From: Candidatus Poribacteria bacterium
Lineage (GTDB): Bacteria > Poribacteria > WGA-4E > WGA-3G
Reading direction: 5' to 3'
Length of the DNA: 64,000 bases
Assembly (NCBI GenBank): GCA_028824125.1
Contig: JAPPES010000085.1
Location: forward strand, 79,281-143,280
A program made the translations under genes and the position numbers. This document shows, piece after piece, positions 7,596 through 61,160 of this stretch. Every line of letters begins with the position of its first letter. The stretch's first letter is position 1. The notes under the pieces are model-generated. The model was given only the letters and a program-made list of their open reading frames with translations. It searched no databases and was not told the DNA's origin.

Positions 7596-7740
7596 CATTT
7601 CTGTAGCGTAAACTTCCAGTTTGCGTCAAATATGCACAAACTAACAGTTTGTGCTACAACTTCTATTGTCCGTTATGTCTCCAAAACAGGTTTATCAAAG
7701 TGTCCCAATAATTTCAAAGTTTACTATGAGTAGGTTCGAT
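7596..7740. repeat. MITE-like repeat, family A. Its terminal motif is TGTAGCACAAACTT-like. It carries an ~85-bp tail that is near-identical to 43985-44070.
   Basis: The sequence gtagcgtaaacttccagtttgcg...gtttgtgctacaac recurs at about 16655, 20650, 43840, 57690 and 60965. The ORF-track ORF 7551..7733 lies inside this element and is probably spurious. Confidence 0.6.
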
Positions 7741-7810
7741 AATAAAACCGTTCCTACCGTTGATGTATTTACATAATTTAGATTTTACAAATTAGAATTG
7801 GAGGAACGAA

Positions 7811-9094
7811 TTGGAGAGTAGCAAATCTTTATCAGCGTGGCAAAAATCACAACAATTTATCCCTGGCGGTGTCAACAGTCCCGTCCGTAATTTTAGCAAG
7901 GTTGGTGGACATCCCCGCTTTATTGATCGCGGTGAAGGGGCCAAGATTTACGACATAGACGGAAACGAGTATATCGATTATGTCGCTTCATGGGGACCAT
8001 TAGTTTTGGGGCATGCACATCCTGATGTGGTCGAAGCCGTCAGGACTGCAGCAGCGCGAGGCACAAGTTTCGGTGCTCCGACAGCATTAGAGACAGAACT
8101 TGCAAAAACTATCGTCAACGCAGTGTCTTCCATTGAACAGGTCCGACTTGTCAACTCAGGTACGGAAGCGACAATGAGCGCGATTCGTGTCGCACGCGGT
8201 TATACAGGACGCAATAAAATCATCAAGATAGATGGTTGCTATCACGGACATGTAGACTATCTATTGGCAAAAGCGGGTTCAGGCGTTGCAACTTTCGGTC
8301 TTTCGGATAGCGGTGGCGTGCCAGAGGATTTCGCACGGAATACACTCACTATCCCGTTTAACGATCCTGAGGCATTGACAACAACAATTGAGGCTAACAC
8401 GGACGAGATCGCCTGTCTCATACTGGAGCCTATTATGGGCAACATGGGGATTATCCCACCACGTGAGGGGTACCTCAATGAACTTCGTGAGATTACTGAA
8501 CAGCATGGGATCGTGCTTATCTTTGATGAGGTAATTACCGGTTTTAGGGTCGCTTATGGTGGCGCACAGTCATATTATAACGTTACACCAGATATGACAT
8601 GTTTAGGGAAGATAATCGGTGGTGGTTTGCCTGTCGGTGCTTACGGCGGAAAACGGGAGATTATGCAGTGTGTTGCCCCAGAAGGCGATGTGTATCAGGC
8701 AGGCACATTATCTGGTAATCCGTTGGCTGTCACTGCAGGTATAACGACTTTGAAAAAGCTGGCGGAACCAGGGGTTTATGAGCAACTTGAAAACCGCGCA
8801 TCTACTCTGGCAGACGGAATAGCAGAAGCAACCCAAAAACATGGAATTGATGCATGGCATAGCCGCGTCGGTTCAATGCTGATGCTATATTTTACAGCAG
8901 AGACTGTTACTGATGCAGATGGTGCACGAACAGCCGATATAGAACGTTATCGTCAGTACTTTTGGGGACTCCTTGAACGTGGTGTTTATGTCGCCCCTTC
9001 CCAATTTGAAGCCGGATTTGTATCCTTAGCGCATTCCGAAGAGGATATCAATATGACCGTTCAAGCTGCAACTGAGGTAATCGCAAATCTGTAA
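7811..9094 (+). CDS. hemL: Glutamate-1-semialdehyde 2,1-aminomutase.
   Basis: The N-terminus reads GGVNSPVR, followed by a class-III aminotransferase fold. The similarity to HemL is full length. Confidence 0.9.
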
Positions 9095-9112
9095 CAGTAG
9101 TAAAGGAATTGA

Positions 9113-10093
9113 ATGTCAAGTTTTGATCAGATTGTAAATTTAATTGCTGACGATCTTAGTGCTGTAGAGGCGAAACTGACTGAAAATACAGCGAGCGAAT
9201 ATAGTTTTGTAGATATGGCGGTTCAGCATGTTGTAGAAGGAGGCGGTAAACGCTTACGTCCTATCCTTGTTGTGCTATCTGCAAAAGCGCGTGGATACGA
9301 AGGTGCGGATGCACACACACTCGCAGCAGTTGTTGAACTCATCCATGTTGCATCCCTTGTGCATGATGATGTGCTTGATGAAGCTGCAATCCGCCGTGGA
9401 CGTGAAACATTACAGACAAAATGGGGCAATAAGGTGGCAGTACTTGTTGGGGATTACTTGCATGCCCGCGTTCTTTCAATGCTCGTTTCCCGCCGCGCAG
9501 ATGACCCCGCAATGGCGATCCTTGCCGATACCACGCAGGCAATGTGTGAGGGGGAAGTCATCCATGCCTATAAAAGTGGAGATTTTGATATATCAGAAGA
9601 GGAATACCTAAAGATAATTAGTTTTAAGACCGGTAAGTTGATTGCCGCCTCTTGCACGCTCGGTGCGATCCTCGGACCTCATGACACTCAGCAGATTGAG
9701 GCATTCACAACCTACGGCAAACAAATTGGAACTGCATTCCAAATTGTAGATGATCTGCTTGATTTCGTGGAAGACCCAGAAAAATTAGGAAAAAATGCTT
9801 TTGGTGATCTTCGTGAAGGGAAACTTACTTTTCCTATTATACATACCCGAAAAGTGTGTGATGATAATGAGAAACAAACGCTTGAAAAAGTGCTAAATCC
9901 TGACACCGATGAAACCGAAGCTATTACCTTTGTTGAATCTTTATTCCAAAAATATGGTGTGGAAATTCACTGTTTGGAAATTGCACAGAGTTATGCCGAC
10001 CGTGCTAAAACTGCGTTAACAAATATACCACAATCGGATGCGCGTACAGCCTTGCAAAACCTTGCGGATTACGTCGTTTCACGGGATTCATAG
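9113..10093 (+). CDS. Long-chain trans-polyprenyl diphosphate synthase (IspB/HepT-like).
   Basis: Two aspartate-rich motifs are present: LVHDDVLDEAAIRRG and FQIVDDLLDF. A KTGKL motif is also present. Confidence 0.8.
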   Translation: MSSFDQIVNLIADDLSAVEAKLTENTASEYSFVDMAVQHVVEGGGKRLRPILVVLSAKARGYEGADAHTLAAVVELIHVASLVHDDVLDEAAIRRGRETLQTKWGNKVAVLVGDYLHARVLSMLVSRRADDPAMAILADTTQAMCEGEVIHAYKSGDFDISEEEYLKIISFKTGKLIAASCTLGAILGPHDTQQIEAFTTYGKQIGTAFQIVDDLLDFVEDPEKLGKNAFGDLREGKLTFPIIHTRKVCDDNEKQTLEKVLNPDTDETEAITFVESLFQKYGVEIHCLEIAQSYADRAKTALTNIPQSDARTALQNLADYVVSRDS

Positions 10094-10097
10094 TAAA

Positions 10098-11219
10098 ATG
10101 TTTTATCCAGCACATATAAATCTGCAAAATAGAGCATGCCTTGTTGTTGGGGGGGGCACTGTTGCTGAACGTAAAGTTGTCTCTATGCTCATCAGTGGTG
10201 GAAATGTAACTGTGATTAGTCCAGACGCAACCGAATTAGTTATATTCCTTGCTGAGATAGGCACAATACAATGGCACAAACGGCAGTTTAAGACAGGAGA
10301 TACGAGCGGATATTTTCTTGTATGTGCCGCAACCGATTTTACAGATATAAACACCGCAGTATACGCTGAAGCACATAAAGAGAAGAACATTCGTTTAGTC
10401 AATGTCGTTGACGTTATCCCACAATGTACATTTGCTGCTGCGTCTGTAATAACAGATGGCAAACTCATGATTAGTATCTCCACAAGTGGTATGAGTCCAG
10501 CGACAAGTCGGCGCATCCGAGTACATTTTGAAGAGACGTTAAAGACGTCATCTTTATATACGCTTGGATATGAAAATGGAAAACCTGTACCAATTGAAAA
10601 TCAAAGATTGCCATATCCAGTTTACCTGTTATTGGAAGATCGCAAGTGTGTTGTCCTATATGAGCAGGAAACATCGGAAATTGAACGTAGAGTCTCACTA
10701 TTACGTCAGTGTGGCGCGATAGTGGTGCATAATCCTATGGACTTTGATGATGCATTCCTTGTGATTTCCGATACATCTATAAGTGATGTTTCTGATGGCT
10801 TCTTACAAGAGATTCTCGATAGACCAAACTCTGCTGACTTCTTTACACCGAATCTCGTTATAGATGATAACCTTATTATTAGCATATCAACAAAGGATAG
10901 CACAGATGTAAGCAAGATGGAACGTTTACATGCGAAACTCACGCATCAGTTTGAAAACAGCGGTTACGGTGCATTTATTGACCTGCTTGGCAAGCGGCGT
11001 CCGGAAGTCCTCAAAACTTTTCCTACGTCCAAAATGCGCGGCGATTTTTTTGAGAAACTTATCGGACACGTCGTAGACAGTCCACAAACATGTTGTCTAA
11101 GTCTTACAAACCCTGCGTGTTCTGCCGAATGCCTTTTCAACTGGGTACGACATGGTAAAATTAAGGACGCAAACAACTTTATATCGGAGTTTTTAAGCGC
11201 ACAGCAAGCAAAAATATAA
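10098..11219 (+). CDS. Precorrin-2 dehydrogenase / sirohydrochlorin ferrochelatase-like protein (SirC/Met8 family) with an internally duplicated degenerate domain. The start was moved to ATG 10098, just after the upstream stop.
   Basis: The N-terminal Rossmann signature LVVGGGTVAERKV is typical of SirC and the CysG N-terminus. The second half (aa ~190-370) repeats the same fold pattern in degenerate form. Confidence 0.65.
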   Translation: MFYPAHINLQNRACLVVGGGTVAERKVVSMLISGGNVTVISPDATELVIFLAEIGTIQWHKRQFKTGDTSGYFLVCAATDFTDINTAVYAEAHKEKNIRLVNVVDVIPQCTFAAASVITDGKLMISISTSGMSPATSRRIRVHFEETLKTSSLYTLGYENGKPVPIENQRLPYPVYLLLEDRKCVVLYEQETSEIERRVSLLRQCGAIVVHNPMDFDDAFLVISDTSISDVSDGFLQEILDRPNSADFFTPNLVIDDNLIISISTKDSTDVSKMERLHAKLTHQFENSGYGAFIDLLGKRRPEVLKTFPTSKMRGDFFEKLIGHVVDSPQTCCLSLTNPACSAECLFNWVRHGKIKDANNFISEFLSAQQAKI

Positions 11220-11222
11220 CGA

Positions 11223-12080
11223 ATGTCAACAGAACTCCTGCATTTTCTTTTTCTTATTACCGTATTAGTCTATTTAGCAGCCAGTATTTTTCAGGCACTC
11301 TACCTTGCAATAGGGGAACGATCTGAAACGCCGACTCTACGTCCACGGATCGCCTCAATCGCTTTCTGGGGAACGTGTCTTGGGTTTGCTTTGTTAACGC
11401 TTTTCATTGGACTCTGGTGGTCATTTCAAGGACATTTCCCAATGACGCACTGGACGGACTCAACAGCTTTCTTTGCGTGGGCAATCACCTTAATCTACCT
11501 GATTGTTGTTCGAATGACGCAGCTACATGCTATTGGAAGTTTTGTGATGCCTCTTGCATTCATTACAATCCTGATTTCCTATAGTTTCTCCAGAAATACA
11601 TCAGCATTGCCAGAAGATTTGGAAACCTATTGGTTAGTTCCACACGTTACACTTATTCTGCTTGCTTATGCTGCATTTATCACAGCCTTTGGGTTTGGAC
11701 TGCTTTACCTGATGGCAGAGAAAAAGATCCGTGAAAAGCAACATACGATCTTTCAAAACCTTCTTCCGTCCCTCGGTGCTTCGGACGAACTTGGTTTCCG
11801 ATGTACATTACTCGGAGTGATCCTATTGACAACGGGGGTAATTGTCGGGGCACTATGGACTCAGTATATTAATGAGGAAGTGAGATGGAGATGGCTTGAT
11901 TCTAAAGTTCTTTTTACTGTCGTGACATGGGTCATCTATGTTGTGCAAATTGGTATCCGTCAAGTGTGGGGTTGGCGTGGCAGAAAAGCAGCGTATTCTG
12001 AAATCGCCGGTTTTATTGCCGTACTCTGTACCTATATTGGTGTGAATCTGTTCTTAGACAGCGCACACACATTTCGGTAA
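11223..12080 (+). CDS. Cytochrome c assembly protein family membrane protein (CcsA/HemX-like).
   Basis: The protein is a multi-TM protein with a Trp-rich segment (WWSFQGHFPMTHWTDSTAFFAW, QVWGWRGRK). Its position between sirC and hemA matches the Bacillus hemAXCDBL arrangement. Confidence 0.7.
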   Translation: MSTELLHFLFLITVLVYLAASIFQALYLAIGERSETPTLRPRIASIAFWGTCLGFALLTLFIGLWWSFQGHFPMTHWTDSTAFFAWAITLIYLIVVRMTQLHAIGSFVMPLAFITILISYSFSRNTSALPEDLETYWLVPHVTLILLAYAAFITAFGFGLLYLMAEKKIREKQHTIFQNLLPSLGASDELGFRCTLLGVILLTTGVIVGALWTQYINEEVRWRWLDSKVLFTVVTWVIYVVQIGIRQVWGWRGRKAAYSEIAGFIAVLCTYIGVNLFLDSAHTFR

Positions 12081-13501: not shown

Positions 13502-14424
13502 GCAGCTCGGTTACAATTGGCACGCGTGGCAGCCAACTTGCGCTATGGCAAGCATCCTTTGTAAAACAGCAATTAGCACACCATTTCCCCGATGTTGAAG
13601 TTAACCTCAAAATCATCAAAACCACCGGTGATACTATCCAAAATCGTTCTTTGGTGGGATTAGGCAAAGGCGTTTTTACCAAAGAGATAGAAATCGCGCT
13701 ATTAAACGGTGATATAGACCTTGCTGTTCATAGCCTTAAAGACCTCCCAACAGAATTACCCCAAGGACTTTGTATAGCCGCGATCCCAAAGCGTGAAGAC
13801 CCACGCGATGTACTCGTTACATCCACAGGGTTCTTCTTAGAAGATTTGCTGCATGGTGCGAAAATCGGCACTACAAGCCCACGGCGAAAGGCACAACTTC
13901 TCCATCTACGTCCAGATTTGCAAGTTATTGATGTCCGAGGCAATGTTGATACTCGGATCCGTAAACTTGAAGAAACCGATCTTGATGGGATTATTCTCGC
14001 TGCGGCAGGGATTAAACGCCTCCTTAAGGAAGAAGTTATCACGCAATTTTTTGAAATAGAGCAGATGGTGCCAGCAGTTGGACAGGGAGCATTGGCGATC
14101 GAAGCGCGTGAAGGAGATAGCGACATTGAAAACCTACTTGTTCCTTTGAACGACACAACGACAGTTGCCGAAATTACCGCTGAAAGAACTGTATTGGAAA
14201 GTCTCGGCGGCGGATGTCAAGTGCCGATAGGCGCGTATGCTGAACACGTTGAGGGTGAACTCTCACTTATCGGCACTGTATGCCATCCTGAAGGGAGAGT
14301 CCGTATTGTAGAAAGCGCAGCGGGAATGTTAGACGATGCACAGCACTTGGGCAGAATTGTTGCTGAAAGATTGCGTAACAGCGGAGCAAATGAACTGTTG
14401 AAAGCACTGTCAGATGTGGAATGA
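13498..14424 (+). CDS. hemC: Hydroxymethylbilane synthase (porphobilinogen deaminase).
   Basis: The N-terminus reads IGTRGSQLALWQA. The start shares an ATGA overlap with the hemA stop. Confidence 0.9.
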   Translation: MSSSVTIGTRGSQLALWQASFVKQQLAHHFPDVEVNLKIIKTTGDTIQNRSLVGLGKGVFTKEIEIALLNGDIDLAVHSLKDLPTELPQGLCIAAIPKREDPRDVLVTSTGFFLEDLLHGAKIGTTSPRRKAQLLHLRPDLQVIDVRGNVDTRIRKLEETDLDGIILAAAGIKRLLKEEVITQFFEIEQMVPAVGQGALAIEAREGDSDIENLLVPLNDTTTVAEITAERTVLESLGGGCQVPIGAYAEHVEGELSLIGTVCHPEGRVRIVESAAGMLDDAQHLGRIVAERLRNSGANELLKALSDVE

Positions 14425-14426
14425 AT

Positions 14427-15836: not shown

Positions 15837-16009
15837 ACTAAAACTCCCTATAATTCATACATTAGCATATATTTTTTATCTATAGAATTATATAGAATTT
15901 CTGTGATTTACGCAACATTAAGTGGCATTTCGTTATGGAGCAGGGCAAATAAAAAAGTGTGATGGTATTCAGCAGAAAGCCTACTCACTATCACATCTCG
16001 ATTGTCGCT

Positions 16010-16468
16010 CTAATCATTGAAGTGACGATACATCTTTACTCTGAGCGTTTCTACCTCGGCTGTGAGTAAACTGATCATCTCACTCTGTTTCTGTATGAGT
16101 GCCGCAATCTGCATTTCTGACGCGCTATCCTTCCTACTACGCCATGTGATGATGAGCTGTGGAATACCTACGGCTATCACTATGAGTGCTACCAAAGCGT
16201 ATACAAGGTTTGCAACCATTGCGATCTGTTTTTCAACGCCGGTTAAACGTCCATCTAATCGCGCAAAACCCTCTTTTAAAGACACAATATCGGATTTTAT
16301 AGATACGATATCAGCTTTTATAGGCGTGAGTTCCTTATCAAGAACTGTTTCGATTTCCTCTTTGACAATCAAGCGAATTTCTTTAAGGTCTTGAGGTGTC
16401 AACTGAGCGAGAGATGGCAACGTAATAGTACACAAACAGACCGAGAAACAGAAAATAGTTTTCAACAT
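16010..16468 (-). CDS. Hypothetical secreted/membrane protein with coiled-coil segments and a C-terminal TM helix.
   Basis: The product has a signal peptide and heptad-like VSIKSDIVSLKEG repeats. A hydrophobic stretch LVYALVALIVIAVGI is present. Confidence 0.4.
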   Translation of the reverse strand: MLKTIFCFSVCLCTITLPSLAQLTPQDLKEIRLIVKEEIETVLDKELTPIKADIVSIKSDIVSLKEGFARLDGRLTGVEKQIAMVANLVYALVALIVIAVGIPQLIITWRSRKDSASEMQIAALIQKQSEMISLLTAEVETLRVKMYRHFND

Positions 16469-16654
16469 GGTTTACTCCTTTCGGGAAACCTTTTATTTTG
16501 GACTAAAGGAATTATACACAATTTTTCCAATTAAAACAACAAAAAGGCGGGGCCCCAGCAATGGGTATGTAAAGTTTTTGTCACATATAGCATTGTCCCA
16601 TCAGGAAAGACGCATAAACTTGTCAGAATCGCAGATGATGCTAAAACTCGCAAG

Positions 16655-16690
16655 CGTTTTGTAGCATAAACTTCCAGTTTGTGCTATCCC
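16655..16690. repeat. Partial family-A MITE terminus.
   Basis: The sequence gtagcataaacttccagtttgtgctatcc matches the family-A end. Confidence 0.5.
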
Positions 16691-16711
16691 CAAAAGCTCA
16701 ACATGGAAGTG

Positions 16712-16810
16712 AAATCAACGGTATGAATCATGGCGAATGCCATACGGGGAATGCCTAAATGGCATTCATACCGTTGATTTGGCGCATTCGTCTTTAGGCA
16801 TTCCCCGTGC
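16712..16810. repeat. Family-B palindromic REP-like repeat (GGGGAATGCCTAAATGGCATTCATACCGTTGATT) with nested inverted copies.
   Basis: The motif recurs at about 43798 (reverse), 53826 and 61098. The hairpin gaatgcc/ggcattc is perfect. Confidence 0.65.
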
Positions 16811-16861
16811 TACAGAAACGGACTATCGGACGAGAAACATCGCCCAGACGAAAAACGATTT

Positions 16862-16925
16862 GGCATCTCCATGCATATAATCCGCGCAATCCGCATAATC
16901 CGTGACAATCCGCGATTCAAATAAA
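16862..16925. repeat. Family-E short tandem/inverted repeats (AATCCGCGATTCAG-type).
   Basis: The sequence taatccgcgcaatccgcataatccgtgacaatccgcgattcaaat is present here. Related copies lie at 57470-57795 in both orientations. Confidence 0.5.
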
Positions 16926-17885: not shown

Positions 17886-19130
17886 TTGAGGATATTAAAG
17901 TATACGATATTATCACTTTTGTGTGTTAGCATACTCGTTTACGGAGCCGCTACAGATGTGCCAGAACATGGTCTTCCGATGGCGGTGCCAGAGGATGTTG
18001 GCGTTTCTACTGAACGGCTTGAAAAAATCGCACCTGTTCTGCAGGGATACGTCAACAAAGGACAAACACCAGGATTCCTTACTGTCATCGCGAGGAAAGG
18101 GAAAATCGCACATTTTGAGACCATCGGTATGCAGGATATTGAAAATAAAAAACCGGTTGAACCAGATACAATCTTCCGTATCTATTCAATGTCAAAACCG
18201 ATTACCAGCGTTGCTGTGATGGTCCTCTACGATGAAGGGCATTTGAAACTTGATGATCCTGTTGAAAACTATATTCCCGCATTCAAAGACATGAAGGTCT
18301 TTAACAATGAACAGACTAAAACCCATACCGCAAAAAATAAGATGACAATCAAGCATCTACTCACACATACTTCCGGTTTGACTTACGGGTGGGGCGACAG
18401 ACCCGTTGATAAACTTTACGCCAAATTGAAAGTATTTGAACGTGATTCAACGTTGGCAGAAAAGGTAGAGAAACTTAGCAAAATCCCGCTTGTTTTCGAA
18501 CCCGGCAAGAGATGGAAATACGGTGTTTCTACGGATGTTCTCGGTTATCTTGTGGAGGTTGTATCTGAAATGCCGTTTGAAGAATTTTTACAGACGAAGA
18601 TTTTCAAACCACTCGGCATGGTAGATACTGGGTTTTCGGTGCCACAAACAGAAGTAGAACGATTTGCGGCTATATATAGAGCTGCTGAATCAGGGGAACT
18701 ACAACGTGTCGGAAAACCGCCTCTTGCAACTGATAACCTCACTTTCTTTCCTTCTGGGGGTGGCGGGTTTGTTTCTACTGCTGCGGATTACCTCCGTTTT
18801 TGTCAGATGTTACTCAATGGCGGTGAATTAGATGGTGTGCGTATTTTAAAGACCGAAACCGTTGAACTGATGCATTATCCACATCAACAATATCACAGAG
18901 ATGGATGGGCTTACGGTTTTGGATTCCATGTTGTTACACGTAAAAATTATGGGAAAAATGGACGGTCATCTGGATCATTTAGTGGAGGTGGTTTAGCTGC
19001 GACTAACTTTTGGATTGACCCAGAAAGAGAACTCATCGGCATTCTGATGACGCAGCTGATGAATAACCGTTATCCTTTTCAAGGGGAATTCAGGAAGCTT
19101 ACCTATCAGGCTTTAATTGACTCGGAATAA
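17886..19130 (+). CDS. Secreted beta-lactamase-family serine hydrolase (class C beta-lactamase / EstB-like), paralog 1.
   Basis: The product has a signal peptide. An S-x-x-K catalytic motif (YSMSKPITS) is present, and the fold is beta-lactamase-related. Confidence 0.8.
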   Translation: MRILKYTILSLLCVSILVYGAATDVPEHGLPMAVPEDVGVSTERLEKIAPVLQGYVNKGQTPGFLTVIARKGKIAHFETIGMQDIENKKPVEPDTIFRIYSMSKPITSVAVMVLYDEGHLKLDDPVENYIPAFKDMKVFNNEQTKTHTAKNKMTIKHLLTHTSGLTYGWGDRPVDKLYAKLKVFERDSTLAEKVEKLSKIPLVFEPGKRWKYGVSTDVLGYLVEVVSEMPFEEFLQTKIFKPLGMVDTGFSVPQTEVERFAAIYRAAESGELQRVGKPPLATDNLTFFPSGGGGFVSTAADYLRFCQMLLNGGELDGVRILKTETVELMHYPHQQYHRDGWAYGFGFHVVTRKNYGKNGRSSGSFSGGGLAATNFWIDPERELIGILMTQLMNNRYPFQGEFRKLTYQALIDSE

Positions 19131-19210
19131 TAGCGTAATTAGAGACAAAAAACGGTCTACGTTGAAAATTATTGGAGTGCTTATTCTAAAATTATAGACT
19201 TCAGCAATTG

Positions 19211-19288
19211 TCGGGAATCGGAGTTCCCTTCTACAATGTTAGATCCATCTTCAGTAGGAGCGATCTCAGAATCGCGACCTTTACCCAT
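19211..19288. repeat. Family-F repeat (GGGAATCGGAGTTCCCT / GTAGGAGCGATCTC.GAATCGCGAC).
   Basis: Matching segments occur at 48270-48340 and 50482-50528. Confidence 0.5.
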
Positions 19289-19341
19289 AAAATTTCGGCA
19301 GACACATCACTATATGACACGAAAATAAAAAGGAGAATAGA

Positions 19342-20589
19342 TTGAAACGATTAACTTGCTTACTTTTACTACTATTTTGGACCACTGCACTTGCATTCGG
19401 ACAAGGACTTCCGATAGCTGAGCCAGAGGATGTTGGTGTTTCTACTGAACAGCTTAAAGAAATCGCACCGACGCTGCAGGGGTACATTGACAAAGGGCAA
19501 CTACCTGGATTCCTCACAGTTATAGCGAGGAAAGGGAAGATTGCACATTTTGAAACCATCGGCATGCGAGATGTTGAGAATAAAAAACCGATTGAACCAG
19601 ATACAATCTTCCGTATCTATTCAATGTCAAAACCGATTACCAGCGTTGCTGTGATGGTACTTTACGATGAAGGGCATTTGAAACTTGATGATCCCGTTGA
19701 AATGTATATACCCGCCTTTAAAGGCATGCAGGTATTCAACAAAGAACAGACTGAAACACATGACGCTAAAAATAAGATGACAGTAAAACATCTCTTAACA
19801 CATACTTCCGGCTTGACTTACGGGTGGGGTGACAAACCTGTTGATAAACTCTATGGTGAGCTCAAAATATTCAAACGTGGTTCCGGTTTAGCAGAGATGA
19901 CAGAAAAACTGGGCGATATCCCGCTCGTTCACGAACCTGGAGCAAGATGGACCTACGGTGTTTCTACAGATGTTCTCGGCTATCTTGTGGAAGTCGTATC
20001 TGAAATGCCGTTTGAGGAATTCTTACAGACAAAGATTTTCAAACCACTCGGCATGGTAGACACTGCATTTTCAGTACCGAAGGAAAAAGTAGAGCGATTT
20101 GCAGCGTTGTATAGACCTACAGAAGAAGGTGGACTTAAACTTGCGAGAAACGCGCCGCTTGCAAATGATGATGTCACTTTCTTTCCTTCTGGTGGTGGCG
20201 GTCTTGTTTCTACTGCTGCGGATTACCTCCGTTTCTGTCAGATGTTACTTAACGGTGGTGAATTGGAGGGGGTCCGCATTTTAAAGACCGAAACCGTTGA
20301 ACTCATGCGCTATCCACATCATCAATACGGCAAAGATGGTGCTTTCGGACTCGGATTTCATGTTGTAACCCGTAAGGATGGCGATAAAAATAAAAGGGCT
20401 ACAGGTGCATACAGTTGGGGCGGTGCAGCCGCTACAACCTTTTGGATTGACCCAGAAAAAGAACTCATCGGAATTTTGATGACGCAGCTGATGAATAACC
20501 GTTATCCTTTTCAAGGGGAATTCAGGAAGTTGACTTATCAGGCTTTAATAGAAGCAGAACCAGAACAGTCGGATAATCAGCAAAAATGA
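19342..20589 (+). CDS. Secreted beta-lactamase-family serine hydrolase, paralog 2. It is near-identical to paralog 1 across long nucleotide tracts.
   Basis: The product has a signal peptide and a YSMSKPITS motif. About 80% of residues are identical to 17886..19130, with 60-75-nt identical DNA tracts. Confidence 0.8.
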   Translation: MKRLTCLLLLLFWTTALAFGQGLPIAEPEDVGVSTEQLKEIAPTLQGYIDKGQLPGFLTVIARKGKIAHFETIGMRDVENKKPIEPDTIFRIYSMSKPITSVAVMVLYDEGHLKLDDPVEMYIPAFKGMQVFNKEQTETHDAKNKMTVKHLLTHTSGLTYGWGDKPVDKLYGELKIFKRGSGLAEMTEKLGDIPLVHEPGARWTYGVSTDVLGYLVEVVSEMPFEEFLQTKIFKPLGMVDTAFSVPKEKVERFAALYRPTEEGGLKLARNAPLANDDVTFFPSGGGGLVSTAADYLRFCQMLLNGGELEGVRILKTETVELMRYPHHQYGKDGAFGLGFHVVTRKDGDKNKRATGAYSWGGAAATTFWIDPEKELIGILMTQLMNNRYPFQGEFRKLTYQALIEAEPEQSDNQQK

Positions 20590-20639
20590 TAAATCCAAGT
20601 TGTCCGCCTATCTGATGCCAATAACTTTGGATATTATTG

Positions 20640-20965
20640 TAGCGCAAAACTTTTAGTTTGCATCCACTACTGCACAAACTAAATGGAGATTAAATAAATA
20701 TTATGGTAATTTCTTTAGTCCCGTAGGGACGCAATGTTTATAGAAAAATGTTGTCCTTCCCCTCTTGAGTTCCGTAGGAACGGCATATTTATTGTTGATG
20801 CGCTTCGAAACATATCGTCCCTACGGGACTAAGGAATGAGGTTGTCCGCGCTGCTATAAACATATCGTCCCTACGGGACTGAAGAGCACTTAAAATGTTT
20901 CGAATATGTATAATGAAAAATTACCGATTTAATTACTTCATCTTCATAAAGTTTGTGCTACAGCA
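20640..20965. repeat. Full-length family-A MITE. Its core contains four copies of a GTCCCTACGGGAC palindrome, one of them inverted.
   Basis: The ends are tgcacaaactaaatggag... and ...cttcataaagtttgtgctacag. Internal repeats lie at about 20718, 20767, 20806 and 20856. Confidence 0.65.
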
Positions 20966-21048
20966 CAGTTTGGCGGTTTAGGTCCCACGGACCAAAAGTG
21001 GTGTGTATGTATTTTTGGATTTCACTATAACTGAGGAGAAACAGACTT

Positions 21049-22221
21049 ATGGACTATGGAATTCCGCGCGCGGTGCCTGAAGAGGTCGGTATGTCCGCAG
21101 CGCGGTTGCAACGAATTGCACCTGTCATACAACGTTGGGTAGACGATGGCAAAATACCTGGCGCATTAACAATGATCGCTCGTGAAGGTAAACTCGTACA
21201 TTTCGAAAAGTTCGGCATGCAGGACGTTGCAACTGCTAAACCAATGGAGTTTGATACCATCTTCCGCATCTACTCAATGACAAAACCGATTACAAGTGTT
21301 GCCGTGATGATGCTCTATGAGGAGGGACATTTTCAACTCAATACACCTGTATCTGAATTTATCCCTGCTTTCAAAGAAATGAAGGTTTACGCAAATCATG
21401 GCGATGCGATTGTTGATGCGGAACGAGAGGTGACGGTCAAACACCTACTCACCCATACTGCAGGCCTTATCTATGGTGGCGACTGGGTACACCCGATTAA
21501 TGACCGATATAGAGAAGCGGACTTTTACGGTGGGGACCTCTCACACATGGCACAAGAACTCGGTAATATCCCGCTTTTACACCACCCAGGCGACGCGTGG
21601 AATTACGGCATGTCTACCGATGTTCTCGGTTATCTTGTAGAAGTCGTTTCAGGAATGCCGTTTGCGGAGTTCTTGAAGAAGCGGATTTTTGAACCCTTAG
21701 ACATGGTAGATACAGATTTCTCTGTTCCTGAAGAAAAGGCCGACAGATACGCCACGTTATATGAACCTGCGGAAGATGGCGGTATTCATGTGCTGGAAAA
21801 TGCGCCTGTTTCAAGTGGTCCACTTAGTTTTCACCATTCGGGTGGTGCAGGGTTGCAGTCAACCGCTGCAGATTACCTCCGCTTTTGCCAAATGATGCTC
21901 AATGAAGGCGAACTCGACGGTGTCCGTTTGCTCGGTAGAAAAACGGTGGAACTTATCACAATGAATCATATCCCTGATGATTGGCAACCACTGTGGAGAA
22001 CTGGATGCGGTTTCGGTTTAGGATTTGCTGTTGTCACCGATGTGGCTGACACACATGCCCTTGGTTCTTTAGGCACTTACAGTTGGGGTGGTCTGGCAAG
22101 TACCACATTTTGGATTGATCCCGTTGAAGAATTGATCGGCATTCTAATGACGCAATTAATCGGTGATGCCCCCTTCCACGCCCAATTCCGAGTGCTAACC
22201 TATCAGGCTATTATTGATTAG
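21049..22221 (+). CDS. Beta-lactamase-family serine hydrolase, paralog 3. It has no signal peptide and is probably cytoplasmic.
   Basis: A GAGGAG RBS precedes the start and a YSMTKPITS motif is present. Identity to paralogs 1 and 2 is about 60%. Confidence 0.8.
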   Translation: MDYGIPRAVPEEVGMSAARLQRIAPVIQRWVDDGKIPGALTMIAREGKLVHFEKFGMQDVATAKPMEFDTIFRIYSMTKPITSVAVMMLYEEGHFQLNTPVSEFIPAFKEMKVYANHGDAIVDAEREVTVKHLLTHTAGLIYGGDWVHPINDRYREADFYGGDLSHMAQELGNIPLLHHPGDAWNYGMSTDVLGYLVEVVSGMPFAEFLKKRIFEPLDMVDTDFSVPEEKADRYATLYEPAEDGGIHVLENAPVSSGPLSFHHSGGAGLQSTAADYLRFCQMMLNEGELDGVRLLGRKTVELITMNHIPDDWQPLWRTGCGFGLGFAVVTDVADTHALGSLGTYSWGGLASTTFWIDPVEELIGILMTQLIGDAPFHAQFRVLTYQAIID

Positions 22222-22228
22222 ATTTGCA

Positions 22229-22436
22229 AAGTAGTAGACACACGCCGTGTGCCGTAAGTTCGTAGGTTGGTTAGAGCGTAGCGAAACCCAACATTTGCCG
22301 TTTTAACATCGCCCGATAGTTCTTATGGGAGGGTTTTGTAATCCCGATATAAAGCAGCGTTTGTAGTAACACAATTCATTGTACGTCTTTGAACTTGTGG
22401 ACGGCACGCGGAGCGTGCCTACTACCTTTAAGCACA
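22229..22436. repeat. Family-C MITE (~208 bp) with ~30-bp terminal inverted repeats GTAGTAG(A/G)CACACGCCGTGTGCCGT.
   Basis: Both terminal repeats are present in inverted orientation. Related copies lie at 24290 (a solo terminal repeat) and 39710. Confidence 0.65.
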
Positions 22437-22499
22437 TATATGACATTGAATTATTTATGCATACCCCTCAAATAAATGTGATAGGAGAAAAATACATCA

Positions 22500-24271: not shown

Positions 24272-24289
24272 AACAAAGTTTGCATTTAA

Positions 24290-24322
24290 AAGTAGTAGGC
24301 ACGTTCCGCGTGCTGTCCACTT
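24290..24322. repeat. Solo family-C terminal repeat, followed by a degenerate D motif.
   Basis: The sequence here is agtagtaggcacgttccgcgtgctgtccactt, followed by ctatgaatctccctcaataaattt. Confidence 0.5.
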
Positions 24323-39678: not shown

Positions 39679-39866
39679 AAATAATTCCGATGTTAAATAT
39701 GCGTTTAAAGGTAGTAGGCACACGCCGTGTGCCGTCCACAAGTTTAAAGAGGCGCAATGAATTGCGCGACTACAAACAGCACTTTGTGAAATAATGCCGC
39801 ACCTAAAGTCCGTCCCTGTCTGTGCTGATGCGCCAAATATTTATGCACACCCCTCATATAATTTAC
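39662..39866. repeat. Composite repeat. Inverted D motifs (TTATTTATGCACACCCCTCA) flank a family-C terminal repeat plus an internal segment.
   Basis: The left end is aggggtgtgcataaataattcc and the right end is atttatgcacacccctcatataat. An internal segment caatgaattgcgcgactacaaac matches 22364-22392 in reverse. Confidence 0.55.
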
Positions 39867-43635: not shown

Positions 43636-43797
43636 AAGATGTGTTTGTAGAAAATCTAAATTCTAATACATTCCTGTGGATTTGAGGCGTTTGTAATCAC
43701 GTAATTCATTGCGTCTCTTACATTAGACTGAACATGCTCCTTTTTTATAGTAAAACTTACAATTAATGGGACACTTATGAGCATCAAACTTTTAGTA

Positions 43798-43831
43798 AAT
43801 CAACGGTATGAATGCCTTATGGCATTCCCCG
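43798..43831. repeat. Family-B palindromic repeat, reverse orientation.
   Basis: The sequence is aatcaacggtatgaatgccttatggcattccccg. Confidence 0.6.
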
Positions 43832-43834
43832 TGT

Positions 43835-44070
43835 CTCATCGGCACAAACTAAATGAAGTTTAAATAAATATTTCGGTAAGGGGGCGAGGTTAGGAAACCT
43901 CGCCAGCAGCAGGTGTACATCTCTGCTGGCGAGGTTTCCTAACCTCGCTAAATTACCCAATTTATTTTTTTATCTTCATAAAGTTTGTGCTACAACCTCT
44001 ATTGTCCGTAATGTTCCAAAATAGATTTATCAAAGTGTCCCAATAATTTCAAAGTTCACTATAGTTAGCG
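43835..44070. repeat. Family-A MITE with an internal 26-bp perfect-stem hairpin and an 85-bp tail near-identical to 7651-7735.
   Basis: The left end is gcacaaactaaatgaagtttaaataaatatttcggtaa. The hairpin is gcgaggttaggaaacctcgccagcag/ctgctggcgaggtttcctaacctcgc. The right end is ttcataaagtttgtgctacaacctctattgtccg... Confidence 0.65.
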
Positions 44071-53825: not shown

Positions 53826-53860
53826 GCGGGGAATGCCTAAATGGCATTCATACCGTTGAT
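53826..53860. repeat. Family-B palindromic repeat.
   Basis: The sequence is cggggaatgcctaaatggcattcataccgttgatt. Confidence 0.6.
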
Positions 53861-54074
53861 TTGGCGTTTTATCCACGCGCTGATAATTCAGAATGCTGTT
53901 GGAAGTTACACCATTTTAGCCATAATTTTCGCAACAATTGCGAAAATTGCATAAGTCATGGTACACTTATATTTGTAACAAGTACGCTGTTGGCATCGTT
54001 TATGCAAGACAATAGATAACAAACTTAAAACGCGCGACGTTTATCCAATCAAATATTAATTCACGGAGAATAAA

Positions 54075-57410: not shown

Positions 57411-57439
57411 TTATTCCTCTTGCGTAGGCGGCAGCTCCG

Positions 57440-57800
57440 CGTAAATCGAATGAAGATTAATTTTTTAATTCGGACCTTTTCTTTCCGCACTTGTCTGAAT
57501 CGCGGACTACGCGGAGAATACGGAAAACACGGATTATTGAGTCTGGAACTCCCAAACACTTATTCAAAGTGTGCCTCAATCGTTTGAAAAGGAACTTATT
57601 TTGCCAAACCCCCATCCGCGTAATCCGCGATCCAGACAGAATAGTAATAAGCCGCGTCTTCTGCGTAATCCGCGATTCAGACACTAAAAAAATGTAGCAC
57701 AAACTTTCCAGTTTGTGCCAAAATACGCAAACTAAAAGTTTGCAGTACAAAAGACAAAATCCGCGTTCTCCGCGCACTTCCGCGATTCAGATCGGAATTA
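57440..57800. repeat. Intergenic repeat cluster. It contains family-E AATCCGCGATTCAG units in both orientations, a family-A terminus at about 57690-57750 and a D motif at about 57795.
   Basis: gtctgaatcgcggactacgcgga lies on one side, and tccgcgtaatccgcgat(c/t)cagac occurs twice on the other. The sequence tgtagcacaaactttccagtttgtgcc belongs to family A. The D motif reads ttatttgtgcacacccctcaa. Confidence 0.55.
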
Positions 57801-57908
57801 TTTGTGCACACCCCTCAACTAAATAACCCTGATCTAAATTTGCATTGATATTAGCTAAAAAATTTGTTATTATATTGAGTATAGTTACTTTATTAAAGGC
57901 ATTCGCTT

Positions 57909-58610
57909 ATGAACGCTGAACCAACCGCTATAGAAGAGATACTCACTCAGATTCGTCAACACTTGCTCCCGCAGGTGGCAGGTCTTACCAAGTTTCAAAC
58001 AGCGATGGGATTGCAAAAATTTCGGAGTCGTTTGCACAGTATCCACAATTTTTGCCTTCGTGCTGAGTTGTCAGGTGAGATTAGCAATCAAGTTGAGGTA
58101 CTGCTTTCAACCAGTGCGAGTTTTTGGCATCTTATTACCGAAAACGAGTTAATACTGACGAACTTGAAAGACTTTACACGTGTTCGCACCTTTTCAGCAG
58201 AAGCAGAAGGCATAACCAATTTAGAAGAGCTGCTTTCGGGTGAGGACACGCTCCGAGATGTGATTGTCAATAGTATCGCCTTTATGTTAAATTGGAAAGC
58301 CAATACGATTTGGGTTGATACTGCTAAGAAGGCACGCACCGCGATGACAAAAAACTATATGCTTGAAATTCAGGACAGGATTTGGCAGTTTATTAAAGAG
58401 AGTAAACAAGAAACAGAACCAATTGATGTAGCACAAGCTGAGCGGATTCGAGTACGAGCAGAAAAGTTCATGCAGATCATTCAAGTGGGTGAATTAACAA
58501 CTGAAGCACAAGTGACTTTGTTGATGCAAATTTATAACATGTTACTCCGGTTCCAACTTGGGCAACTGATTATCCAATTAGAAAACCTGCAAGAAAATGA
58601 AACGGATTAG
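57909..58610 (+). CDS. Hypothetical protein, predicted to be alpha-helical.
   Basis: The ORF has coding-like composition. No motif was recognised. Confidence 0.4.
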   Translation: MNAEPTAIEEILTQIRQHLLPQVAGLTKFQTAMGLQKFRSRLHSIHNFCLRAELSGEISNQVEVLLSTSASFWHLITENELILTNLKDFTRVRTFSAEAEGITNLEELLSGEDTLRDVIVNSIAFMLNWKANTIWVDTAKKARTAMTKNYMLEIQDRIWQFIKESKQETEPIDVAQAERIRVRAEKFMQIIQVGELTTEAQVTLLMQIYNMLLRFQLGQLIIQLENLQENETD

Positions 58611-58642
58611 ATGCGGCTGCCTGATGGTAAAGGGATTATTTT

Positions 58643-59425
58643 ATGGAAAAAGATCTGTTTGAATCGCTTGTTGAAGTTATCGCAACATTGAGGGGCGAAA
58701 ACGGGTGCCCGTGGGATCGGGAACAGACACATACATCTTTAAAACCGACACTCATTGAAGAAACCTACGAGACGGTTGAAGCGATTGATTCTGGCGATCC
58801 AAAGAAATTAAAAGAGGAACTTGGCGATCTTTTATTAAACGTTATGCTTCAAGCACAGATCGCTGCAGAAAACAGGGATTTTGATATTTACGATGTGATT
58901 GACACGTTGACAGAGAAATTAATTCGGAGACATCCGCATGTGTTTGGTGATGTTCATGTGGATGATGCAGAAGAGGTTGTGAAAAACTGGGAAGCTATTA
59001 AAAGCCAAGAGGCAGGTTACGAAGATAGAGAATCAGTGCTTGATGGCATTCCGAATGCCTTACCCGCTTTGCTTCGGGGGCAGAAAATACAGAAACGTGC
59101 GGCGCGAGTCGGTTTTGATTGGGATGACATTGCTGATGTGGTCGCGAAGGTGGACGAAGAGTTAGCAGAGGTTAAGGACAGCTTGCACAATAATGACTCT
59201 GATGCTGTTGAAATGGAGATCGGAGACCTTTTGTTTGCCGTTGTGAATTTATGTCGTTTTGTCGATCTTCAAGCCGAAGAGGTGTTGCGAAAATCAAACC
59301 GTAAGTTCGTTGCCCGCTTTAAACGGATGGAGGCAGAACTGGAAAAACAGGGAGAATCCTTTTCCGAGAAAACACTTGCCGAACTCGACGAAATTTGGGA
59401 AGATGTAAAAAAAGATGAATCATGA
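58643..59425 (+). CDS. mazG: Nucleoside triphosphate pyrophosphohydrolase MazG.
   Basis: A tandem MazG-domain pattern is present (LRGENGCPWDREQTH...EETYE..., second EExxE/D set). Confidence 0.8.
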   Translation: MEKDLFESLVEVIATLRGENGCPWDREQTHTSLKPTLIEETYETVEAIDSGDPKKLKEELGDLLLNVMLQAQIAAENRDFDIYDVIDTLTEKLIRRHPHVFGDVHVDDAEEVVKNWEAIKSQEAGYEDRESVLDGIPNALPALLRGQKIQKRAARVGFDWDDIADVVAKVDEELAEVKDSLHNNDSDAVEMEIGDLLFAVVNLCRFVDLQAEEVLRKSNRKFVARFKRMEAELEKQGESFSEKTLAELDEIWEDVKKDES

Positions 59426-60152
59426 AGTTCTTGACAAGTTTCGAGCATATCCCGAATATGAAAAGTATTCCCAGCTTATTAATGAATTGGATCCGAACGC
59501 ACCCCCACAGGTCGTAATTGTACATCGGACACCTGATCCTATCTGTGGATCGGGTAAAAAACTCGGTATCTTTTCTGGTTCTTTTAATCCGCTCACTGTG
59601 GCACACATCAAAATGGTTGAGGAAGCGCGAGAACGTTTTCAACTTGATGAGCTGCTTTTGCTGCTTGCTAAGGCAAATGTTGATAAAGATTTATTTGGAT
59701 GGCCGTTGGCAGGGAGAATTCTGTCCCTCAAACGTTATGCTGAAGATCAAAACAATATTTCAATTGGTATATCCAGTCACGGTCGATATATTGACAAAGT
59801 AGAAGCCTTAAAAACGATCTATCCTGTTGACACCGAGTTTCACTTCATTGTCGGTTACGATACATTGGTCCGGATTTTTGATCCGAAATACTATACGGAT
59901 ATTCAAACAGAATTACAACACCTTTTTTTAGAGTGTCGTTTTATCGTAGCAAACCGCGACCAGGTAGATATTGAAACGATAAAAGAATTCCTTTCACAAC
60001 CAGCACATCAACAGTATAGATCATCTGTTACGCCCTTGAGACTCCCAGACTTCTATGCCGAGGTATCTTCCACCGAGGTGCGCCAGCGGATAGCGCAAGG
60101 GGATACTATTTCTCATTTAGTCCCACCTGTTATTGCCGAATTTTTTGAATAG
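59415..60152 (+). CDS. Nucleotidyltransferase of the NadD (nicotinate/nicotinamide mononucleotide adenylyltransferase) family. It has a ~55-aa N-terminal extension and an atypical T-x-A-H motif.
   Basis: The segment GIFSGSFNPLTVAHIKM is NadD-like. The C-terminal ISSTEVRQRIAQG...VPPVIAEF matches NadD. The start overlaps mazG by 11 nt. Confidence 0.55.
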   Translation: MNHEVLDKFRAYPEYEKYSQLINELDPNAPPQVVIVHRTPDPICGSGKKLGIFSGSFNPLTVAHIKMVEEARERFQLDELLLLLAKANVDKDLFGWPLAGRILSLKRYAEDQNNISIGISSHGRYIDKVEALKTIYPVDTEFHFIVGYDTLVRIFDPKYYTDIQTELQHLFLECRFIVANRDQVDIETIKEFLSQPAHQQYRSSVTPLRLPDFYAEVSSTEVRQRIAQGDTISHLVPPVIAEFFE

Positions 60153-60732
60153 CATTCTGTAATTCCCACCTGTAGTTAATGACCGGTTTTCCCAATTTTT
60201 TACACGTATAAATGCGTGCATCTAAATGTTCACAAAACAGACACGAATGAAAAAGCCGAATTTCAGGTATAGGTTGAAAGTGAGCGCACCTATTTGCAGT
60301 TTCAACCATCTCATTTAGATATGTTCGGAAAACGATATTATTTAATTTTGATTTGGCAGCACGATCTATTGCCCGTTTCTTTTCTCCGTGTTGTTCCCAG
60401 ATTCTATTAATGACCTCTGTCAAAATAGCGCGATATGTTTGTTCACCAGGAGGCTCAGGGGAATAAAGCGTAACTTCGTTTTGAAGGCAATAATTCGAGA
60501 GCCTTTTAAGCAGACTGGTCTCACCTTTTCCGTATTCCTTTCGCAATTCTGCTTTAAACCTTTGCTGAAACTGTCCCCACTCAATAGTCCGCGATTCCCA
60601 TTTTTTTAACAGAAGCACAGAAGGTGTGAGTTCGGGGATGACTCTGATGCCCTCTACTTTCTGATGGCAGATAACGAACTTATTCTGTGTGTCGTTTTCT
60701 CTTTGGTTTTCGAGTGCGTCTAAATACAACAC
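60130..60732 (-). CDS. DUF488-like domain protein with a Cys-rich C-terminal extension.
   Basis: LTPSVLLLKKW...FQQRFKAEL...VTLYS resembles the YeaO/DUF488 core. A CxxC...C cluster lies near the C-terminus. Confidence 0.35.
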   Translation of the reverse strand: MLYLDALENQRENDTQNKFVICHQKVEGIRVIPELTPSVLLLKKWESRTIEWGQFQQRFKAELRKEYGKGETSLLKRLSNYCLQNEVTLYSPEPPGEQTYRAILTEVINRIWEQHGEKKRAIDRAAKSKLNNIVFRTYLNEMVETANRCAHFQPIPEIRLFHSCLFCEHLDARIYTCKKLGKPVINYRWELQNAIQKIRQ

Positions 60733-60964
60733 GTTCTGTGTCCTCTTCAGAAATACTATTCACCATATTTATTGTAACGTTAAAATAAAAATGTGGTTTG
60801 GTTTATTTTAACATTACAATAAAAATTGTGCAACAAATATTTCAAATTGGCACAAAAGTAGATAGAATAAGGTGTCAATATAAAAAAAGAGGTTGGTTAG
60901 GTGGGTTTTATAGTGAAATCCAAAATTTATGCACACTTTTGGTCCGTGGCACCTAAACTGTCAG

Positions 60965-61160
60965 ACTGTGTTGTAGCACAAACTTTTAGTTTGTGTAGTA
61001 GTGTACGCAAACTGAATGAAGTTTAAAGAAATATTTCGGTAATTTGGCGAGGTTAGGAAAACTCACCAGCAGAGATGTACACCTGCTGCTGGCAAGGCGG
61101 GGAATGCCTAAATGGCATTCATACCGTTGATTTCTTCCTAACCTTGCCAATGTCCAAGTA
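60965..61160. repeat. Family-A MITE that carries a family-B element (61098-61132) nested inside its internal hairpin.
   Basis: The element begins tgtagcacaaacttttagtttgtg...aaatatttcggtaa. A TTGGCGAGGTTAGGAA...TTCCTAACCTTGCCAA stem is interrupted by cggggaatgcctaaatggcattcataccgttgatt. Confidence 0.6.

Follow-up and report, generated by a model that had tools for sequence, protein, structure and literature searches.

Family A is a dispersed intergenic repeat in a 64,000-nt stretch of a Candidatus Poribacteria genome (assembly GCA_028824125.1, contig JAPPES010000085.1, positions 79,281 to 143,280 of the forward strand), hereafter called the window. Coordinates without a locus number are positions within this 64-kb window, sequences compared with it carry locus numbers (L), and the six family-A copies are labelled A1-A6. 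An initial annotation regarded these copies as MITEs, or miniature inverted-repeat transposable elements. We propose that family A is a repetitive extragenic palindrome (REP) of the GTAG type, the doublets of which spread as elements of the REPIN type (REP doublet forming a hairpin), and we assign a probability of about 0.6 to this reading. The doublets have entered several unrelated MITE families with terminal inverted repeats (TIRs) and target-site duplications (TSDs), and in both datable events the inserted unit was the whole MITE shell with the doublet inside. Furthermore, the family-A hairpins are themselves insertion targets, receiving a non-coding element, M, in their loops and a short repeat, family B, in their arms.

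The motif TGTAGCACAAACTT, which had been taken for the terminus of the MITE, occurs ten times in the window at up to two mismatches, against 0.67 matches expected, and none of 100 shuffled sequences reached ten. The six copies are therefore real, and all six lie between open reading frames (ORFs), as had been claimed. Seven of the ten matches fall at the A1-A6 sites; the remaining three (2084, 23819 and 58427) are located within ORFs and look like chance. A side-by-side reading of A1-A6 identifies TGTAGCACAAACTT as the 5' half of a GTAG-tagged hairpin and not as a transposon end. The family-A unit is a 23-27 nt hairpin with a 9-bp stem, in which T-GTAG-CRYAAACT is followed by a loop of 2-4 nt and by AGTTTRYG. 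In its usual form, in the window as well as across Poribacteria, two hairpins stand inverted to each other, 5-15 nt apart and with GTAG outward, as a REPIN-type doublet of ~58 nt. Every site in the window is such an outward-GTAG inverted doublet or the remnant of one, as read from the sequence and, in A3, from its inverted repeats:

7602-7658 (unstranded): A1, inverted family-A (REP-A) doublet of two outward-GTAG hairpins 5-6 nt apart; fold -13.4 kcal/mol, z -4.75
16660-16686 (+): A2, intact REP-A hairpin of 27 nt; fold z -6.5
16687-16814 (unstranded): decayed partner hairpin of A2 (…GGAAGTG / TGCTACA), broken by a family-B copy that holds a second one (16745-16780)
20638-20962 (unstranded): A3, REP-A doublet with its left hairpin at 20638-20663 and its right arms (20672-20680 and 20950-20962) split by M
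43778-43994 (unstranded): A4, REP-A doublet with its left hairpin split by family B (43797-43831, -) and its right arms at 43842-43850 and 43982-43994
57693-57749 (unstranded): A5, inverted REP-A doublet with hairpins 5-6 nt apart; fold -15.9 kcal/mol, z -6.2
60972-61045 (+): A6, left REP-A hairpin (60972-60998), 5' arm of the right hairpin (61006-61013) and left end of M

This anatomy redraws several boundaries of the initial annotation. At the position given for A2, 16655-16690, there is one 27-nt hairpin, and its decayed partner ending at 16814 had been overlooked. The limits assigned to A1 (to 7740) and A4 (to 44070) take in the arms of an outer element beyond family A proper, and the left A4 hairpin, which starts at 43778, had escaped notice because a family-B copy splits it. 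The inverted termini attributed to all copies extend over 14-15 nt in A1, A3, A4 and A5, but A6 lacks the right TGTAGC end, having neither the right half of M nor the right REP-A end. The subterminal block AAATGAAGTTTAAATAAATATTTCGGTAA, also held to be common to all copies, is confined to A4 and A6 (up to three mismatches) and, in diverged form, to A3; it is absent from A1, A2 and A5 and is in fact the end of element M. In A3, A4 and A6, the loop of the right-hand hairpin bears an insert of 127-265 nt.

The hairpin structure of family A is evident from its folding and its covariation. As single-stranded DNA, the hairpins fold with z scores of -4.8 to -6.5. To collect further copies, we scanned one genome per species with the pattern TGTAGCRYAAACTT-N(1-4)-AGTTTG, in which GTAG is required, and took the phylum of each metagenome-assembled genome (MAG) from its record title. 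The scan returned at least 116 loci; ~85% of the matches listed come from Poribacteria MAGs, and several loci per Poribacteria genome are found among the matches listed. Together with the window, the loci amount to ~1.04 Mb and contain 230 family-A hairpins. At a variable stem position that covaries, A is matched by T (132 of 135 hairpins) and G by C (50 of 51). Intact hairpins in the window all begin with TGTAG, whereas decayed ones deviate (TGAGC in the left A4 hairpin), and the partner hairpins of doublets, which lie outside the ascertainment of the scan, likewise end with CTACA. Among close neighbours of the 230 hairpins, 50 are outward doublets no more than 15 nt apart, 26 are head-to-tail pairs and one is an inward pair. 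Tandem arrays of the hairpin with a period of 31-44 nt occur in L041, L048, L052, L059 and L107. Family A thus displays the structural features of a GTAG REP, namely a short stem-loop that bears GTAG on one end and occurs as singlets, outward dimers and clusters, and, as in REPINs, the inverted REP pair is its predominant unit.

The hairpin is not restricted to Poribacteria. The same GTAG-CGCAAACT hairpin forms outward doublets in MAGs of Chloroflexota (Caldilinea and Anaerolinea), Acidobacteriota (Blastocatellia and Pyrinomonadaceae) and Ignavibacteriota (L014, L026, L031, L047, L062, L073, L078, L093, L099, L103 and L114-L117), where the partner hairpin sometimes differs in a covarying manner. 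Beyond the hairpin, the loci from the scan, most of them from Poribacteria, also have the outer shells, M and family B in common with the window. The density of family A differs by lineage. The earlier figure of about one site per 10 kb applies to the window (six sites in 64 kb) and to its closest relative, L129 (two doublets in 21 kb), but not to four more distant Poribacteria loci, which contain no family-A doublet in a total of ~84 kb. That the copies are dispersed, miniature and nested repeats of a mobile type, rather than parts of one conserved regulatory region, is upheld: their neighbouring genes are unrelated, and several copies are missing or replaced in relatives of ~84-93% nucleotide identity. 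The genes that recur beside the family-A hairpin encode WD40, laminin-G, GFO/IDH and similar proteins, with no transposases among them, and the WD40 genes vary in their distance and orientation relative to the hairpin. The Poribacteria origin of the window is borne out by its proteins: the glutamyl-tRNA reductase (HemA) is 100% identical to a protein that NCBI assigns to Candidatus Poribacteria, the nearest relatives of this protein bear that name as well, and an HD-domain protein agrees. At the nucleotide level, the window matches the metagenome scaffold ROBB21-1 scaffold_195. A cyanobacterial (Nostoc-like) origin, suggested by composition and by the style of the repeats, was rejected on the genome scan and on the protein names. 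A scan of the whole window at Rfam gathering thresholds returned no match, and neither did a BLAST search of the family-A doublet against a plasmid collection. REP-like repeats of AATCCGCGATTCAGAC adjoin A5 (57600-57800) and are also found at 16880-16925.

What, then, are the MITE-like features of the window? They belong to outer shells. A1, A4 and A6 are enclosed by complete TAGTRAAA...TTYACTA MITEs that duplicate TA, and A3 retains one shell arm:

7573-7726 (unstranded): outer MITE shell 1 (TAGTAAAAC...GTTTACTA, 154 nt) around A1, defined by inverted arms and homologous copies
20963-21027 (-): long arm of a shell-2 TAGT-type MITE beside A3, ending ...CACTA|TA, other arm missing (from sequence)
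43748-44061 (unstranded): outer MITE shell 1, 314 nt with TA duplication, around A4; 31-nt arms, 81% complementary; empty site in L212
60911-61176 (unstranded): outer MITE shell 2 (TAGTGAAATCC...GGATTTTATTA, 266 nt, flanked ta|...|ta) around A6, defined by inverted arms

Shell 1 of A1 and A4 has 31-nt inverted arms that begin with TAGTAAAAC and end with GTTYACTA. Among 11 homologous copies of shell 1, the left boundary reads ta|TAGT in 10 and the right boundary ACTA|ta in 9; paired shell-2 copies have the same ta flanks. The insertion of A4 is resolved by an exact empty site in L212, a locus of ~84% nucleotide identity, where CCTTTCT-TA-GTTTGG corresponds to the filled CCTTTTT-TA-[314 nt]-TA-GTTAGC. 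Therefore, the unit inserted at A4 was the whole shell, with duplication of TA and with its contents inside. With TIRs, TA duplication and an empty site in a relative, the outer shells are TA-duplicating MITEs. In a second exact pair, a shell-3 MITE (ends AACGYNAGTTTGATAA) that carries a family-A doublet is present in L129 (3097-3283) and absent from the window (5635-5675), with a 7-8 bp duplication, AAATCTA(A). The larger shell was thus the inserted unit in both exact empty/filled pairs that involve family A.

The empty-site comparison covered A1-A4, with A5 and A6 lying outside the syntenic stretch of the relatives. It yielded no exact empty site for A1, A2 or A3, where relatives have either the same insertion or unrelated spacers; the A1 orthologue is filled in L129, and L130 and L131 are without A1 in spacers that have otherwise diverged. 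Another shell family, with ATACCATTTCTAAT ends, carries a family-A singlet, an array or GTAG hairpins of very different sequence. Conversely, TAGT-type shells without a family-A hairpin exist in L081, L044 and L023, and the hairpin is therefore cargo of the shell and not its terminus. Family A is thus carried as cargo by five or more unrelated MITE families, which differ in their TIRs and TSDs. The MITE interpretation of the initial annotation consequently holds for the outer shells, with their TIRs and TA duplication, and fails for the TGTAGCACAAACTT ends, which are hairpin halves without a TSD.

The outer shells encase family A, and element M invades it. M is an independent, non-coding element of 111-265 nt with the ends ATGAAGWTTAA...TTAAWCTTCAT. 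It occupies the loops of two family-A hairpins in the window, and a hairpin from its centre, H, recurs in A6:

20683-20947 (unstranded): M (265 nt) filling the right-hand hairpin loop of A3; core of four P-type hairpins (20718-20730, 20769-20781, 20817-20829 and 20867-20879)
43853-43979 (unstranded): M (127 nt) filling the right-hand hairpin loop of A4; centre (43884-43948) is H, a perfect 26-bp stem; fold -43 kcal/mol, z -12.6
61046-61148 (unstranded): H of A6, orientation opposite to that in A4, with family B (61098-61133, +) within its 3' arm; from sequence and inverted repeats

An empty/filled pair captures one insertion of M. The hairpin GGCACG-TTCCG-CGTGC is intact at 24.30 kb in the window (24290-24320), and its counterpart in L129 (20732-20842) holds a 111-nt M in the loop, with at most one base duplicated (0-1 nt). 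Moreover, complementary arms of at least 6 bp enclose 10-11 of the 14 independent copies of M, an arrangement seen at only 0.4% of 2000 control sites. Five or more unrelated families are represented among the host hairpins, including family A, the P-type, the GGCACG type and a small hairpin within H. M therefore targets hairpin loops largely irrespective of their sequence, and its target appears to be structural. We considered whether family-A doublets likewise sit at the apex of larger hairpins and rejected this idea, because their flanks are no more self-complementary than controls (mean -7.3 versus -6.5 kcal/mol, p = 0.17). Loop targeting is therefore claimed for element M and not for family A.

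The interior of M is itself composite. The palindromes described in A3 are three exact copies of GTCCC(GTA/TAC)GGGAC and a fourth that is the variant GTTCCGTAGGAAC, not a copy; these P-type hairpins consist of GTCCCGTAGGGAC followed by a GATATGTTTATAG tail and resemble arrays that flank Y1 transposase genes (see below). H, at the centre of M in A4 and in A6, consists of two small hairpins, GCGAGGTT/AACCTCGC, inverted to each other. The perfect 26-bp stem reported in A4 is borne out by both sequence and fold, and the two copies of H have opposite orientations, the A6 loop being the reverse complement of the A4 loop, as had been recognized. The family-B element noted inside the A6 stem is also genuine, a 36-nt copy that breaks the 3' arm. 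H of A6 passes directly to the right shell arm, as in L023-type shells, and A6 is probably a recombinant or a deletion, to judge from the order of its parts.

Family B is a 36-nt element, CGGGGAATGCCTAAATGGCATTCATACCGTTGATTT, with copies at 16745-16780, 53827-53862 and 61098-61133 (+) and at 43797-43831 (-), in addition to a broken copy at 16712-16807. In A2 and A4 it breaks the 3' arm of a family-A hairpin, in A6 the stem of H, and once it lies within another B. The long nested copies A2, A3, A4 and A6 arise from insertions of M and B into hairpins together with carriage by shells. A comparison of L029 with L086 also gives what looks like a filled/empty pair of family B within a GTAGG hairpin.

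Handling by a transposase that acts in trans has been proposed for REP/REPIN systems with a REP-associated tyrosine transposase (RAYT) (PMC3116915, PMC3333891). By analogy, the family-A doublets would be non-autonomous, and a Y1 (HUH) tyrosine transposase with its gene elsewhere in the genome would act on them in the form of single-stranded DNA hairpins. As REPIN-type elements, they may have reached both the various shells and the additional phyla. A phmmer search with six published sequences of RAYTs and TIRYTs (PMC3733652 supplement) found nothing. A hidden Markov model built from 19 published RAYT/TIRYT sequences recovered one Y1 gene, L067:463-939, which matches Pfam Y1_Tnp (E 1.6e-26) and exceeds the cut-off of the NCBIfam IS200 model with 71.5 bits. 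Homologues of this gene are numerous in Poribacteria, mostly on one contig each, and one occupies a conserved syntenic position in many samples. We examined four lineages of these homologues and 80 metagenome loci; the additional loci searched yielded no other Y1 gene. The Y1 lineages are flanked by arrays of short GC-rich hairpins (L067:230-1060; L119-L128, in the ~500 bp to either side of the gene, which lies at 1501-1980), the stems of which differ by gene lineage while the 3' tail is conserved (approximately TATCTGTGTAGA or GATATGTCTATAG). The Y1 gene and its flanking arrays form a REPtron-like arrangement that matches the P-type hairpins of A3.

Family-A hairpin pairs that stand 300-1500 bp apart enclose no transposase. 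One such pair, in L074, encloses a 201-aa ORF without a transposase match in the Y1 searches, which, as a guess from its sequence, may encode a Uma2-type nuclease. For the outer shells, TA duplication points to the IS630/Tc1 group, but no TAGT-ended pair 700-2500 bp apart, as an autonomous IS630-type partner would have, is present in the loci examined. A 2-kb pair of shell-5 ends in L043 was considered as an autonomous element and rejected; it encloses a 432-aa ORF and no transposase, and this ORF presumably encodes a type I restriction specificity (HsdS) subunit, as its sequence reads. Of the transposase types suggested in the initial annotation, IS630/Tc1 suits the TA-duplicating shells and IS200/605 suits the hairpins by analogy, but a cognate transposase gene was found for neither.

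Several observations weigh against the REP/REPIN reading. Neither the window nor the Poribacteria and other loci searched, ~1.1 Mb of sequence, contain a Y1 or RAYT gene next to a family-A hairpin, and no family-A hairpin is located near the Poribacteria-type Y1 family in the 80 metagenome loci. The Y1 genes that were found are flanked by a hairpin family other than family A, and the L067 gene scores 29.7 bits against the model of REP-associated tyrosine transposases, below its cut-off of 80 bits. Among the relatives compared, there is no empty/filled pair that differs by just the doublet. In addition, G·T wobbles occur on the GTAG strand at the neighbouring stem position in ~30% of hairpins, and both this count and that of GTAG conservation are ascertainment-biased because the scan pattern fixed part of the hairpin. 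Within the REP/REPIN reading, the existence of a RAYT dedicated to family A is a tentative proposition, to which we give somewhat less than an even chance.

These observations lend weight to the main rival, in which the doublet is a structural or functional module, such as a protein-binding site or an RNA hairpin, that spreads only by hitch-hiking in MITEs and by recombination or conversion. Both dated family-A insertions are whole-shell insertions, every shell-1 copy seen bears a doublet with no empty shell 1 among them, the loci searched contain no cognate transposase, and the G·T wobbles, biased as their count is, could hint at a role at the RNA level. However, the doublet resides in many shells of otherwise unlike sequence, at varied internal positions and, in A5, beside unrelated repeats. 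It also occurs in at least four phyla that do not have these shells in common, and its tandem arrays and excess of outward doublets are hallmarks of transposase-handled REPs according to PMC3733652 and PMC3116915. We therefore consider a purely passive module unlikely, although it is the competitor to be taken most seriously. The original concept of family A as a single non-autonomous derivative of a DDE transposon, with TGTAGCACAAACTT as its TIR, deletion variants as its short and long copies and cut-and-paste movement with target duplication, explains the 14-15 nt inverted ends of A1, A3, A4 and A5 and the small size, AT-richness and intergenic position of the copies. Such a transposon should leave direct repeats at its ends, and none is consistently present beside the TGTAG...CTACA boundaries, where the flanks read TTTC/ACTT in A1, TTAT/GCAC in A3, CTTA/ACCT in A4 and AAAA/AAAG in A5; the TSD check proposed in the initial annotation was thus negative at these ends. 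Moreover, the supposed TIR is half of a hairpin that also exists singly and that repeats head to tail every 31-44 nt in arrays, the hairpin unit is found inside at least five MITE families with differing TIRs and TSDs and in other phyla, and the long forms stem from insertion of M, which is seen elsewhere in unrelated hairpins. This concept is very unlikely to be correct.

A further reading derives the two hairpins from an IS200/IS605 insertion sequence (IS) that degraded and lost its transposase gene, one being its left and the other its right subterminal hairpin, similar to a palindrome-associated transposable element (PATE). Poribacteria do have IS200-like Y1 genes flanked by hairpin arrays, and a TnpB-like gene lies near one of them (L123). 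In IS200/IS605 elements, both end hairpins have the same orientation on one strand, and insertion takes place 3' of a fixed short motif. By contrast, the family-A hairpins are inverted and symmetric, with 50 outward doublets against 26 tandem pairs, and their flanks have no motif in common. The hairpins that flank the Y1 genes have other stems and a TATCTGTGTAGA tail that is absent from family A, and a full-length element with family-A hairpins around tnpA/tnpB was not seen in ~1.1 Mb. Of the explanations weighed here, this one has the smallest chance of being right. The REP/REPIN reading of family A can also be extended to a broader scheme, in which layered hairpin modules (family-A doublets, H, P-type hairpins, B and M) would move as single-stranded DNA, and at least one of them, M, would recognize the shape of any extruded hairpin's loop instead of a sequence, which would generate 'Russian-doll' hairpins. 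The drivers would be the single-copy, vertically inherited IS200-like Y1 genes, the flanking hairpins of which co-vary with the gene lineage, and the family-A stem, present in at least four phyla, would be the signature of a REPIN-RAYT lineage that is either ancient or spreading horizontally. As a whole, this scheme is speculative and rather improbable.

Family A most closely resembles the GTAG REPs described by Di Nocera, De Gregorio & Rocco (2013, PMC3733652), which occur as singlets, outward dimers and clusters in 8 phyla. Both are short stem-loops with GTAG at one end, with this same range of arrangements, a covarying stem and G·T pairs. Poribacteria are not among the hosts described in that paper, and the family-A stem GCRYAAACT was not assigned to a numbered GTAG family, although it may match one. 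In A. variabilis, GTAG-15 dimers sit within long palindromes that begin with TATAGGA (PMC3733652); there and here, dimers lie in a longer palindromic repeat whose empty form has not been found. The palindrome around family A differs in being a TA-duplicating MITE with an empty site.

REPINs were defined by Bertels & Rainey (2011, PMC3116915), and the REPs and bacterial interspersed mosaic elements (BIMEs) of E. coli were studied with TnpA-REP by Ton-Hoang (2012, PMC3333891). As in the REPIN-RAYT systems, family A consists of inverted REP doublets that are able to fold, the doublets outnumber other arrangements, and tandem clusters exist. The family-A spacer is 5-15 nt, whereas the doublet units of P. 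fluorescens measure 71 or 110 bp (PMC3116915), and a RAYT flanked by family-A hairpins was not found in the loci searched. The family-A stem is also common to several phyla, unlike the usual REPINs. REPIN sequences are generally lineage-specific.

The outer shells are similar to MITEs of the IS630/Tc1-mariner type (Stowaway-like) and to the cyanobacterial Nezha in their long TIRs, TA duplication, length of 124-314 nt and empty/filled site; this likeness does not extend to the family-A ends, and an autonomous partner was not found in the loci examined. Family B, with its 36 nt, and the nesting of elements call to mind the small dispersed repeats (SDR) of Nostoc, which Elhai et al. in 2008 reportedly described as tiny repeats found inserted in one another as well as in MITEs; the host here is no cyanobacterium. 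Insertion inside REP hairpins is known for IS1397 and for ISPpu9/ISPpu10 (Tobes & Pareja 2006, PMC1525189; PMC8450116). M likewise inserts inside REP hairpins, but it differs from these REP-targeting IS in being 111-265 nt long and non-coding, in entering loops of hairpins from five or more unrelated families and in duplicating 0-1 nt.

In our literature search, no report was found that links Poribacteria with REPs, REPINs or RAYTs. The more unusual aspects of this system are the REPIN-type doublets as cargo of TA-duplicating MITEs with a dated insertion, the insertion of M into hairpin loops of unrelated sequence and the presence of one REP stem across phyla. Repeat annotation in Poribacteria, and probably in other phyla represented only by MAGs, needs to separate REP doublets from the TIR/TSD MITEs that carry them; when the two are not separated, copy numbers, boundaries and 'families' come out wrong. 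The same stem in Chloroflexota, Acidobacteriota and Ignavibacteriota offers a handle on the age of REP-transposase systems and on their possible exchange among phyla, and M represents a testable case of structure-directed insertion. Since the repeats differ between genomes of ~93% identity, they could also serve as strain markers for sponge symbionts.

Other differences and repeats were observed alongside these elements. Relative to L129, the window has ~825 bp extra at 15926-16906 (versus 13726-13881), including a 152-aa ORF (16010-16468) and the A2 site, and ~215 bp extra at 22.3 kb (22258-22478 versus 18897-18902). Conversely, L129 (6716-6895 versus 9095-9112 in the window) contains a 177-bp element with the ends AGGACTTACG...CGTAAGTCCT and a possible (A)ATAG duplication, an insertion polymorphism between relatives of ~93% identity. 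Further REP-like intergenic families include GTAGTAGGCACG-TTC-CGCGTGC hairpins at 22215-22259, 24276-24320 and 39695-39739 and palindromes of the form GGTAGGTTCG...CCTACC at 7728-7760. The window also encodes seven tandem DUF3108-like and three tandem beta-lactamase-family paralogues (68-6587 and 17886-22221), with several repeat insertions in their spacers.

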